Shown piece by piece: positions 45,396 through 47,932 of a stretch of DNA of 64,000 nt (position 1 is its first letter; each line of letters starts with the position of its first letter). The DNA is from Candidatus Thorarchaeota archaeon (lineage in GTDB: Archaea; Asgardarchaeota; Thorarchaeia; Thorarchaeales; Thorarchaeaceae): NCBI GenBank assembly GCA_048884965.1, contig JBHLQH010000004.1, positions 115,368 to 179,367 on the forward strand, written 5' to 3'. Below the pieces are notes generated by a model. It was not told the DNA's origin and made no database searches. It saw nothing but the letters and a program-made list of their open reading frames with translations. The translations under genes and the position numbers were made by a program.

Positions 45396-45410
45396 ACAAG
45401 AATTTATATA
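45396..45410 (+). promoter_or_regulatory. Archaeal BRE/TATA promoter of tRNA block 1
   Basis: TTTATATA at 45403-45410 after a purine-rich element, about 25 nt before the GGAG leader start. Confidence 0.7.
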
Positions 45411-45515: not shown

Positions 45516-45590
45516 GGGGCTGTGGTGTTAATGGTAACATATCTGCTTGGCTGGTAGACGATTGAGGTTCGATCCCTTACGGCTCCACCA
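45516..45590 (+). tRNA. tRNA-Ala(GGC)
   Basis: GGGGCTG/CGGCTCC with G3:U70, loop TT-GGC-TG, ACCA end. Confidence 0.85.
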
Positions 45591-45602
45591 ATTAGAGTAT
45601 GA

Positions 45603-45681
45603 GGGCATAGTGGCTGGAAGTAGTTAACGCGCTCGACTTGCAATCTTGAGTATGTAGGTGCAAATCCTACCGTGTCCACCA
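45603..45681 (+). tRNA. tRNA-Ala(UGC), degenerate (a Cys GCA reading is possible)
   Basis: G3:U70 and A73, irregular anticodon arm CTCGA-CTTGCAATC-TTGAG, T-loop TGCAAAT. Confidence 0.6.
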
Positions 45682-45689
45682 TCATTTGG

Positions 45690-45764
45690 GGTGAATGTGG
45701 TGAAAAGGTATCATAACAGTCCGTGAAGCTGGAGTTGAGAGTTCGATTCTCTTCATTCACACCA
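45690..45764 (+). tRNA. tRNA-His(GUG)
   Basis: GTGAATG/CATTCAC, encoded G-1, loop CC-GTG-AA, A73-CCA. Confidence 0.82.
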
Positions 45765-45769
45765 CCTAT

Positions 45770-45843
45770 GGGTATGTACGTTAACGGCAGACAATTCGAC
45801 TCCAGATCGTATTGTAGAGGTTCAATTCCTCTCATGCCCACCA
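45770..45843 (+). tRNA. tRNA-Trp(CCA), intronless
   Basis: GGGTATG/CATGCCC, loop CT-CCA-GA, ACCA end. Confidence 0.8.
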
Positions 45844-45844
45844 A

Positions 45845-45922
45845 GGGCCATTAGCATAGTTGCGGAATTGCACTCCTCTCATAAGGGAGGTTGCGTTGGT
45901 TCAACTCCAACATGGCCCACCA
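45845..45922 (+). tRNA. tRNA(CAU), Ile2-like or Met
   Basis: GGGCCAT/ATGGCCC, CTCCT-CTCATAA-GGGAG, ACCA end. Confidence 0.82.
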
Positions 45923-45925
45923 CTT

Positions 45926-46001
45926 GACTAGGTAGCATAATAGCGAGTGCCCTTCCCTTGGACGGAAGTTCATGCAGGTTCAAGTCCTGTCCTAGTCACC
46001 A
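45926..46001 (+). tRNA. tRNA-Pro(UGG)
   Basis: GACTAGG/CCTAGTC, CTTCC-CTTGGAC-GGAAG, ACCA end. Confidence 0.85.
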
Positions 46002-46004
46002 TCT

Positions 46005-46079
46005 GCTCCGTTGGTGTAGTGGAAATCACTCGATCCTTTCGAGGTTGGAACGGGGGTTCAATTCCCCCACGGAGCACCA
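46005..46079 (+). tRNA. tRNA-Glu(UUC)
   Basis: GCTCCGT/ACGGAGC, loop CT-TTC-GA, ACCA end. Confidence 0.9.
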
Positions 46080-46081
46080 CT

Positions 46082-46155
46082 GCGTAGTTGAGGTAAAGGT
46101 AACCCACGGGGCTTCCAACCCTGAGCTGGGAGTTCGAGTCTCCCACTGCGCACCA
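46082..46155 (+). tRNA. tRNA-Gly(UCC)
   Basis: GCGTAGT/ACTGCGC, loop CT-TCC-AA, ACCA end. Confidence 0.9.
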
Positions 46156-46157
46156 AT

Positions 46158-46233
46158 AGCCCTGTAGTGTAGACGGAAAGCACGTTGGACCTTGAATTCG
46201 ACGGTCTCGGTTCGAATCCGGGCGGGGCTACCA
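46158..46233 (+). tRNA. tRNA-Gln(UUG)
   Basis: AGCCCTG/CGGGGCT (A1-U72, archaeal type), loop CC-TTG-AA, ACCA end. Confidence 0.87.
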
Positions 46234-46234
46234 T

Positions 46235-46310
46235 CCCAGAGTGAATCTAAGGGCCAGGACATAGGTCTGTAAAGCCTGTGATGCCAGTTCGAGTCTGGCC
46301 TCTGGGACCA
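46235..46310 (+). tRNA. tRNA-Tyr(GUA)
   Basis: CCCAGAG/CTCTGGG (C1-G72), short variable loop, loop CT-GTA-AA, ACCA end. Confidence 0.85.
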
Positions 46311-46311
46311 T

Positions 46312-46386
46312 AGGAGCTTGGTCAAGCGGTAAGACAACTGTCTAACATACAGTCGATCGGTGGTTCGAATCCACCAGCTCCTACCA
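46312..46386 (+). tRNA. tRNA-Val(AAC)
   Basis: AGGAGCT/AGCTCCT, ACTGT-CTAACAT-ACAGT, perfect T-arm, ACCA end. Confidence 0.87.
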
Positions 46387-46403
46387 AATTATCCAAAATT
46401 CAT

Positions 46404-46418
46404 GTGAAAATTTATATA
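46404..46418 (+). promoter_or_regulatory. Archaeal BRE/TATA promoter of tRNA block 2
   Basis: GTGAAAA-TTTATATA, about 25 nt before the GGAG leader start. Confidence 0.75.
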
Positions 46419-46432
46419 CATTCATGAAAAGC

Positions 46433-46670
46433 ACTGGAGGATTACCAATGTTCAGAGAAAATAGTTTGATAGCGTCGTCAAGGACGACACTCGAACGCTC
46501 CACCCATGATAGTCCGAATAAGGACTAGGGTGAGTACACAATCTCTGGACATCACTGCTTCTTTCAAGTCTGCTGGTCTTCAGGGATAGTGGATTTTCTC
46601 TTTGTTGGAGGGCATGTTGCAAAGGAAGAGGGGGAGACCCTCTCTCGTCCCTTGCACTCATCCGTCCAGT
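46433..46670 (+). ncRNA. About 240-nt multibranch structured RNA (unknown family)
   Basis: Terminal stem ACTGGA-GGAT/ATCC-G-TCCAGT, 11-bp ATGTTCAGAGA/TCTCTGGACAT and several nested hairpins. Confidence 0.7.
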
Positions 46671-46676
46671 AAAGGT

Positions 46677-46753
46677 GGGCCAAGAGCACGGTTCGGTTGT
46701 GCAGGAGGCCTTTAACCTCCTAGACGCGGGTTCGAATCCCGCTTGGCTCTCCA
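46677..46753 (+). tRNA. tRNA-Lys(UUU)
   Basis: GGGCCAA/TTGGCTC, GGAGG-CCTTTAA-CCTCC, G8 and C33, TCCA end. Confidence 0.85.
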
Positions 46754-46771
46754 TGCATAGGTCAAAACAGT

Positions 46772-46908
46772 GGAGTGGTAGCTCAATCTGGCAAGAGCGA
46801 TAGCGTTTCACTGTCATTCATACCGTGATCCCTGAGAAGGGCATCGAGTGACAGTTTGCTTTTGGTTCATACCAAGAGATGCTGGTTCAAATCCAGCCCA
46901 CTCCGCCA
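46772..46908 (+). tRNA. tRNA(CAU, Met-like) with a ~60-nt hairpin insertion after the D-arm
   Basis: GGAGTGG/CCACTCC, canonical D- and T-arms, insert at about 46800-46859, TTTTGG-TTCATA-CCAAGA arm, GCCA end. Confidence 0.7.
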
Positions 46909-46913
46909 ACCTT

Positions 46914-46990
46914 GGCGCTGTAGCCAAACGGATCAAGGCACATCCCTTCGAAGGATGGAGGTCTCGGTTCAATTCCGAGCAGCGCCTCCA
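46914..46990 (+). tRNA. tRNA-Arg(UCG)
   Basis: GGCGCTG/CAGCGCC, CATCC-CTTCGAA-GGATG, TCCA end. Confidence 0.88.
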
Positions 46991-46997
46991 AAACCAT

Positions 46998-47074
46998 GAC
47001 CCTGTAGCTCAGTGGATAGGGCACCACGCTTCTAACGTGGCGGGACGTCGGTTCGAGTCCGACCAGGGTCGCCA
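46998..47074 (+). tRNA. tRNA-Arg(UCU)
   Basis: GACCCTG/CAGGGTC, CCACG-CTTCTAA-CGTGG, GCCA end. Confidence 0.9.
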
Positions 47075-47093
47075 AAAATGAAAGGTGAAAACA

Positions 47094-47330
47094 ATGTCGT
47101 ATGAACATCTCATCGGTACAGAAGCCGAAGCACAGGTAAAGGTGACAATCAGCGGAGCTCATAGTGATACTCCAAATCTCTTCGTTTGGGATAGAACAGA
47201 GCTGATTGCAAAGATTTGGCTCTACCCAGATGGTAGGATCAAATACCGAAGTTTTGTTCCTAAGACGACACAAGAGATTGAGATCCGAGGTCGACATCTG
47301 AAAGTGTATGACCCAAGGGAGAATCTCTAG
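47094..47330 (+). CDS. 78-aa hypothetical protein embedded in the tRNA array
   Basis: AGGTGA Shine-Dalgarno at 47083-47088, ATG at 47094, protein-like beta-rich composition. Confidence 0.7.
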   Translation: MSYEHLIGTEAEAQVKVTISGAHSDTPNLFVWDRTELIAKIWLYPDGRIKYRSFVPKTTQEIEIRGRHLKVYDPRENL

Positions 47331-47331
47331 A

Positions 47332-47456
47332 GCAAGCAGTGATCCTATGAATCATTGCCGAGGATTCACCAAACCTAGTATAGAACTTGCCTAAAGTGCG
47401 CGTGATGAGAAGAAGTCCTATCAGACGAAGCCTTGAACCTCACGCGCCTTTGGCAA
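47332..47456 (+). ncRNA. Structured spacer RNA(s) within block 2
   Basis: GCAGTGAT-CCTATGA-ATCATTGC hairpin, then long stem TTGCC-T-AAAG-T-GCGCGTGA / TCACGCGC-CTTT-GGCAA. Confidence 0.55.
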
Positions 47457-47463
47457 CACAAAT

Positions 47464-47590
47464 ACCGGTGTAGCACAGTTGGTAGTGCGCCTGCCTAGTA
47501 AGCAACGCACCAAAAGAGTGCGCCTGCCTTGTAAGCAGGTGGTCGAGAGTTCGAAGCTCTCCATCGGTTCCATTCCGAACACCGGTACCA
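47464..47590 (+). tRNA. tRNA-Thr with duplicated arms (anticodons AGU and UGU) and two CCA ends
   Basis: ACCGGTG pairs with CATCGGT (TCCA, 47572) or CACCGGT (ACCA, 47590). 21-nt direct repeat at 47484-47504 and 47517-47537. Confidence 0.7.
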
Positions 47591-47595
47591 TTTGA

Positions 47596-47670
47596 GTGGG
47601 GATACGCTAAGGGTAGACGACCAGACTGTTGATCTGGGATGTGTCGGTTCGAATCCGACTCCCTGCTCCA
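47596..47670 (+). tRNA. tRNA-Asn(GUU)
   Basis: GTGGGGA/TCCCTGC, CCAGA-CTGTTGA-TCTGG, TCCA end. Confidence 0.83.
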
Positions 47671-47675
47671 TCTTC

Positions 47676-47763
47676 GGTCGGATGGCTGAGTGGTTTAAGG
47701 CTCTGGTCTTGAAAATCAGCGCAGGTAAAACTGCCAGAGGTTCGAATCCTCTTCCGATCGCCA
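47676..47763 (+). tRNA. tRNA-Ser(UGA)
   Basis: GGTCGGA/TCCGATC, long variable arm GCAG/CTGC, G73-CCA. Confidence 0.92.
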
Positions 47764-47767
47764 TCAT

Positions 47768-47841
47768 GGGACACTAGTGTAATGGTAACATCTAAGCTTG
47801 TCGCGCTTTGGCTGGGGGTTCGATTCCCCCGTGTCTCGCCA
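47768..47841 (+). tRNA. tRNA-Asp(GUC)
   Basis: GGGACAC/GTGTCTC, loop TT-GTC-GC, GCCA end. Confidence 0.87.
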
Positions 47842-47844
47842 TAT

Positions 47845-47932
47845 GTCTGGGTGGCAGAGAGGTATAATGCACTAGTCTGCTAAGCTAGATTCCTTCTCGG
47901 AAACGCAAGTTCAAATCTTGCCCCAGACGCCA
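47845..47932 (+). tRNA. tRNA-Ser(GCU)
   Basis: GTCTGGG/CCCAGAC, loop CT-GCT-AA, variable arm TTCC/GGAA, GCCA end. Confidence 0.9.

Follow-up and report, generated by a model that had tools for sequence, protein, structure and literature searches.

A tRNA-Val gene with an AAC anticodon in an accessory tRNA array of a probable Thorarchaeote

The Val(AAC) gene and its tRNA array

The window, the whole 64,000-nucleotide stretch of DNA analyzed, carries on its forward strand an accessory tRNA array (45516..47932) made up of 17 genes recognized by ARAGORN and three atypical ones, that is, 20 genes in 2.4 kb. A tRNA array has been defined by at least 20 genes and at least 2 genes per kb (PMC4758250), and both number and density are reached here if the three atypical genes are counted; ARAGORN with relaxed settings returned noise. 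The genes are clustered and intronless, and those for His, Gln, and Lys have C33. An Ala-TGC-like atypical gene with a mismatched anticodon stem lies near 45605-45681, an interrupted CAT-like gene with a 6-nt loop at 46772-46908, and a tRNA-Thr gene with an internal 21-nt duplication at 47464..47590, all on the forward strand. Judging from sequence, a TATA-like box (45403..45410, forward strand) would drive the first block, including the Val gene, and a second one (46411..46418, forward strand) appears to head block 2; archaeal promoters fall outside the coverage of the sigma-70 scan. A 78-aa open reading frame within the array (47094..47330, forward strand) served as a marker for finding orthologous arrays. 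Neither an integrase nor a capsid gene was found among the ten neighbors scanned at the array locus, and no viral match was found.

The tRNA-Val(AAC) gene (46312..46386, forward strand) closes block 1, starting 1 base after the Tyr gene and ending 25 bases before the second TATA-like box. It is intronless, encodes its CCA end, and has A1-U72, U11-A24, and A73. ARAGORN called the interval tRNA-Val(aac), and Rfam RF00005 matched it with 64.2 bits (E 1.3e-11; gathering score 29), a score equal to the best within the window and with zero non-standard pairs. All seven acceptor pairs, A1-U72 included, all five T-stem pairs, and five of five Watson-Crick anticodon-stem pairs are formed, and U8, A14, G18G19, U33, a T-loop, and CCA are in place. 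The anticodon loop has the canonical 7 bases, C32 U33 A34 A35 C36 A37 U38, with the anticodon at 46344..46346 and A34 at 46344. The intact cloverleaf with anticodon AAC and an atypical A1-U72 pair, as read by eye in an earlier note, was therefore borne out by ARAGORN, Rfam, and the pairing. The minimum-energy fold of the unmodified sequence is not a cloverleaf (z -2.7), as is often the case with tRNA genes. The main identity elements for ValRS are A35, C36, and A73, and the gene carries all three. It departs from the Val genes of the family in having A1-U72 and U38, where those have G1-C72 and C38 or G38.

The archaeal setting assumed in the same note also held. Named homologs of the flanking PadR gene come mostly from Ca. 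Thorarchaeota and otherwise from other Asgard groups, the genome encodes TiaS, and many of its tRNA genes contain introns; the host is probably a Thorarchaeote.

The base at A34 was checked in contigs rather than raw reads, from three samples of a single study that are ~99.9% identical. In SRR30758813, which is probably the source run, a Logan contig was 100% identical across 10,358 bases. The metagenome-assembled genome GCA_048883545.1 was 99.9% identical, with 3 differences in 4.2 kb and the Val gene unchanged. Contigs of two further runs, X2 and X3, span the gene with zero differences; the X3 contig has several differences in the adjoining PadR gene and none in the Val gene. Every contig covering the site reads AAC. 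Because the anticodon recurs in the source sample and in two others, a sequencing or assembly error was rejected, and it is very unlikely.

The earlier note had also reported a second A34 loop, in Thr. The letters AGT are present at 47497-47499, within copy 1 (47484-47504) of the 21-nt duplication, and copy 2 (47517-47537) reads TGT. Position 47497 is T both in X2 and in GCA_048883545.1, two sources that have three differences in common and probably derive from one sample, and an ortholog in an array from another assembly (L215) is a single-copy Thr(TGT) gene, 82% identical. Since the gene is internally duplicated, the sister strain has the T allele, and the ortholog reads TGT, the Thr gene is not a second A34 tRNA; AGT is a young, polymorphic allele in an abnormal gene. 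An allele that breaks the D stem also segregates, at 47475. An intron at 37/38 made of the 33 extra bases would leave a U-U mismatch in the central bulge-helix-bulge helix; splicing of this 33-nt intron would give Thr(AGU) and would need a relaxed endonuclease, and the allele is polymorphic in any case. The gene also has a second T-arm-like 3' end with its own CCA (47573-47590), which is kept in the unduplicated ortholog (L215:652-669) and is therefore older than the internal duplication.

A second small array in the same genome (G000), on contig C9 (C9:108216-108648; L075:8217-8649), holds Leu CAA, TAG, GAG, and TAA genes and Phe(GAA), isotypes missing in the window array. Between them, the two arrays have a U34 gene for Ala, Pro, Gly, Arg, Thr, Ser, and Leu, and none for Val. 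A separate housekeeping tRNA set, mostly intron-containing, is dispersed over other contigs. Val(AAC) is thus a member of the accessory array and lies outside the housekeeping set.

Distribution of A34 genes and of related arrays

In GtRNAdb, tRNAs with ANN anticodons make up 3 of 10,517 archaeal entries, all from four-codon boxes (10.64898/2026.05.15.725136). Intronless Val-type matches in 86 family genomes comprised roughly 40 GAC, 15 TAC, and 22 CAC anticodons; AAC occurred in the gene described here and in a 3' fragment in genome G379 that has no 5' half. The housekeeping Val(GAC) gene also recurs as 3' fragments, in L121 / L082 (G379:C31:6715-6759) and in G011:C49, one fragment having G34>A; these repeats suggest an integration hot spot.

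A pattern for ANN genes, limited to those that have no intron, a variable loop of 5 nt, and an encoded CCA end, gave 96 hits in 400 genomes of the phylum. None of the 52 inspected among the 95 others was an ANN tRNA; they were intron ends, variable arms, or chance matches, and the uninspected ones resemble these types or, by eye, have no T stem. A 5'-half Val(AAC) pattern, specific to Val, tolerated introns in the anticodon loop and missed genes with D-loop introns. In 291 genomes it returned 16 further hits; its reversed-pattern control returned at least as many, and no hit proved to be a tRNA. When position 34 was left as N, the pattern recovered Val genes in 4/5 control genomes, and GAC, TAC, and CAC Val genes were found in complete Asgard genomes. 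Leu(AAG), Ser(AGA), and short-loop ANN genes were surveyed in this genome alone. Within these patterns, no other complete Val(AAC) gene was found in 291-400 phylum genomes and GAC, TAC, and CAC are the rule; no lineage-wide ANN set was seen. As far as could be found, this Val(AAC) gene is the first archaeal A34 tRNA gene from an Asgard archaeon.

A GTDB-wide scan for archaeal-type Val(AAC) gave eight hits, three by chance and five in eukaryote-type clusters, and none in an archaeon. The five clusters (L158, L159, L160, L163, L164) are dense groups of eukaryote-type tRNA genes on short contigs in five bacterial GTDB metagenome-assembled genomes; with many ANN genes, no CCA, and often T runs, they are probably contamination. 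A viral array (L142) has Val(AAC) beside Val(TAC).

No near-identical copy of the array was present in 85 family genomes. In one relative (L211) the array is absent next to the same solute-binding gene, and the contig with the closest fetchable PadR homolog has no array either. Orthologous arrays were recovered from other metagenomes (L214 and L215; assemblies ERZ23880139 and ERZ23498365) at 84% identity with some genes swapped, and their genes keep anticodons and structure across species at 81-88% identity; C33 in Lys is shared with L214. A more distant array with the same gene order adjoins a tRNA nucleotidyltransferase gene and an IS605-type element in G006, and another such array, in G028, shares its contig with genes for an RNA-binding protein and a DNA methyltransferase. 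DNA searches of 86 genomes of the family and 331 of the phylum, pattern searches of metagenome and viral contigs, and BLAST against phages and plasmids returned no ortholog of the Val gene itself; the orthologous arrays (L214-L217) stop short of its position.

Where the window has the interrupted CAT-like gene (46772-46908), L214 has Lys(CTT) and Phe(GAA) (L214:209-376), and non-orthologous copies (59-64%) replace Asn and Ser(TGA) as well; the order is therefore fixed while genes in it are swapped. Toward its 3' end, the structured leader before block 2 (46579-46754) matches L214:46-205 at 72% over 178 bases, the Lys gene included. Frames that by eye resemble HNH endonucleases lie between tRNA genes of related arrays (L068:10500-10900, L067:1-400), and a weak RNA ligase match lies among those of another (L216:208-738).

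Genes with a TAT anticodon, described as lost in archaea (UAU; PMC8007984), occur in mobile-type arrays of relatives (L067:1058-1155, G006:C338; L069:13351-13427, G028:C26). A tandem tRNA-Ile(GAT) and tRNA-Ile(TAT) pair (L185-L196, for example L190:1486-1640) was seen in 11 of 85 family genomes, nine of them in genus g6. Both genes are intronless with Val-like U11-A24 D stems, the GAT gene has an odd T loop, and the TAT gene is conserved across species.

The array resembles tRNA arrays and L-arrays (PMC4758250, PMC8421152) and archaeal clusters (PMC6333295) in having ~20 co-oriented, dense, supernumerary, and patchily distributed genes, some of them degenerate, and an occasional extra isoacceptor. 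L-arrays are long, spread horizontally, and are described as staying silent until translational stress induces them (PMC8421152). The supernumerary genes and patchy occurrence of the array are those of an L-array, and its link to mobile elements is a possible one, as the related arrays in G006 and G028 sit among mobile-type genes. It differs in its chromosomal location, where the ten scanned neighbors include neither an integrase nor a capsid gene. The survey of archaeal clusters placed them in Halobacteria and Methanobacteria and names Asgard nowhere (PMC6333295).

Deaminases, housekeeping tRNAs, and codon use

One explanation offered for the anticodon was that this lineage, as a relative of eukaryotes, has an unrecognized A34 deaminase, with a profile search for TadA/ADAT-like enzymes as the check. 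PF00383 and PF14437 each matched the same two genes in the genome. One encodes a ComEB/dCMP-type deaminase and lies beside a pyrimidine gene. The other, on C9 (L002:1354-1803), encodes a 149-aa protein that scored 168 bits against yeast cytosine deaminase, 77 bits against the best TadA structure, and 70 bits against NCBIfam NF008113 (cut-off 150); by best match it is a predicted cytosine deaminase of the yeast Fcy1 type. Across the six-frame open reading frames, all of which were covered, neither a motif scan nor phmmer found a further deaminase with H/C-x-E...PCxxC, and the ADAT1/ADAR domain PF02137 had no match in the genome. The assembly is 95.7% complete, so a deaminase gene could be unassembled. 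None of the 86 family genomes has a TadA above the NF008113 cut-off, which 6 of 14 controls passed. A weak match to the TadA model occurs in 67 of 85 family genomes; since genomes without an ANN gene commonly have it, it does not track A34. A profilin search matched nothing anywhere, controls included, and hence has no bearing on the genome.

In eukaryotes, tRNA-Val(IAC) is made with ADAT2/ADAT3, and the encoded AAC is all that the present gene has in common with it: here there is no ADAT, with neither a catalytic nor a partner subunit gene, no set of ANN genes taking over from GNN in seven or eight boxes but one intact ANN gene, GNN tRNAs are kept, CCA is encoded, and the gene is a single accessory copy. 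The bacterial pair of TadA and tRNA-Arg(ICG) shares with this genome a protein of the cytidine-deaminase fold, here of the yeast type; there is no TadA above the cut-off and no tRNA-Arg(ACG), the Arg genes being CCT, TCT, TCG, CCG, and GCG. With only a dCMP and a cytosine deaminase encoded, no ANN set, GAC kept, and the Thr case gone, the proposal of a hidden A34 deaminase found no support, and the profile search itself yielded nothing beyond the two Zn-deaminases.

Of the housekeeping Val genes, one on C9 is Val(CAC); another, on C8, has its anticodon in a scaffold gap, and its ortholog in G002 is Val(GAC). Val(TAC) was not seen in the assembly, from which several other housekeeping tRNAs are likewise missing. 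GNN genes are present for Ala, Pro, Leu, Ser, and Arg, and for Val (GAC) by orthology. GUU is the commonest Val codon, at 29.8%, and U-ending codons range over 28-34% across all eight boxes, so that GUU lies within the range; codon use gives no sign of co-adaptation to Val(AAC).

Origin and decoding of Val(AAC)

We favor, at a probability of about 0.6, the reading that the gene is a spare tRNA-Val, part of an accessory array of mobile-element type, in which A34 arose by a single substitution and is tolerated, unmodified and redundant, reading mainly GUU. U34>A from a TAC ancestor would be the most likely substitution, with G34>A possible. The TAC ancestor is the simplest because the arrays have U34 in seven other boxes and none for Val, and because T>A segregates at the Thr wobble position. 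Tolerance of A34 would follow from the four codons of the Val box and from the presence of housekeeping Val genes. The array would be transcribed from the TATA box at 45403 and the Val tRNA cut out of the polycistron; by the known identity rules, ValRS should charge it through A35, C36, and A73 despite A1-U72 and U38. With no A34 deaminase encoded in the assembly, A34 would stay unmodified, and the tRNA would read GUU and, weakly, GUC and GUG. An unmodified A34 wobble, the other option of the earlier note, thus appears to fit all the evidence at hand.

Work in Escherichia coli bears on such decoding. An orthogonal AAC tRNA read, besides U-ending codons, C- and G-ending but not A-ending ones (PMC11066159). 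ANN tRNAs of four-codon boxes were expressed unmodified and were mostly neutral, and overexpression of Val(AAC) lowered growth in three media (10.64898/2026.05.15.725136). Sporadic prokaryotic ANN tRNAs (the three archaeal ones in GtRNAdb, Mycoplasma Thr-AGU, and Firmicutes Leu-AAG/Thr-AGT) likewise have A34 in a four-codon box with no lineage-wide set, and Mycoplasma Thr-AGU is unmodified (PMC11066159). The present case differs from them in being Val, from Asgard, in an accessory array, and added to GNN tRNAs rather than replacing them. In contrast to bacterial ANN carriers, 88% of which have TadA, the genome with Val(AAC) is without it.

Damage nearby raises the question of whether the gene works. 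The Val gene might be silent or uncharged in an array that is cryptic or in decay, and A34 would then be a lesion that escapes selection and plays no part in decoding. The duplicated Thr, interrupted CAT-like, and Ala(TGC)-like neighbors, the D-stem-breaking allele segregating at 47475, the A1-U72 and U38 atypical for Val, and the usually poor transcription of long bacterial arrays (PMC8421152) all point that way. We nevertheless hold this to be unlikely, as the Val stems are all paired, the TATA-like boxes and CCA ends are intact, and in orthologous genes both anticodons and structure are conserved between species. That same conservation, with C33 kept in Lys, weakens our preferred reading too, because the oddities of the array are then not all drift. 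It is conceivable, if rather improbable, that A34 is old, selected, and unmodified, letting the tRNA escape an anticodon nuclease or boosting GUU reading in a stress-induced array. Loop deviations are found in several array genes (C33 in His, Gln, and Lys, that of Lys also in L214), loop mutations have been proposed as nuclease evasion by phage tRNAs (PMC10264068), GUU is the commonest Val codon, viral L142 pairs Val(AAC) with Val(TAC), and all three samples seen are fixed for AAC. With about 99.9% identity among those samples, such fixation means little; no ortholog shows conservation of A34, and GUU is not enriched over the U-ending codons of other boxes.

Editing of A34 to inosine by an unrecognized archaeal deaminase, a forerunner or parallel of ADAT2/3, would be the most far-reaching explanation, and we judge it very improbable. 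The 149-aa protein on C9 weakly matches the TadA model (70 bits), as do proteins in 67/85 genomes, and an enzyme of another fold would escape profile searches. The C9 protein is nevertheless nearer to yeast cytosine deaminase (168 vs 77 bits) and far below the cut-off of 150; there is no second subunit, no ADAT1/ADAR domain, and no further deaminase motif, Arg(ACG) and an ANN set are absent, and GAC, TAC, and CAC persist in complete Asgard genomes. That the tRNA is expressed and converted to I34 by a profile-missed enzyme or a moonlighting cytosine-deaminase-like protein has, correspondingly, a very slim chance. Capture of a eukaryotic tRNA-Val(AAC) through a mobile element seems the least probable of all. 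Among 134 parsed tRNAs the best match was indeed a eukaryote-type Val(AAC), from the contaminant contig L160 (69% over 65 fixed positions), but such sequences had been fetched by a pattern built from the Val gene itself, and the value is at background, with Thorarchaeal Ile(TAT) genes reaching 68% and an unrelated phage tRNA-Gln at 77% by BLAST. The Val gene moreover encodes CCA and sits in register with archaeal-type neighbors.

If I34 were present on Val(AAC), it would be the first wobble inosine in archaea, and in the Asgard lineage; unless tRNA-seq shows inosine, the gene has no bearing on the origin of eukaryotic I34. It does show that anticodons excluded elsewhere can survive in accessory arrays. 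Val(AAC) is one verified addition to the very short list of archaeal A34 tRNA genes, and it offers a natural substrate with which to study decoding by an unmodified A34 on the ribosome of an archaeon.
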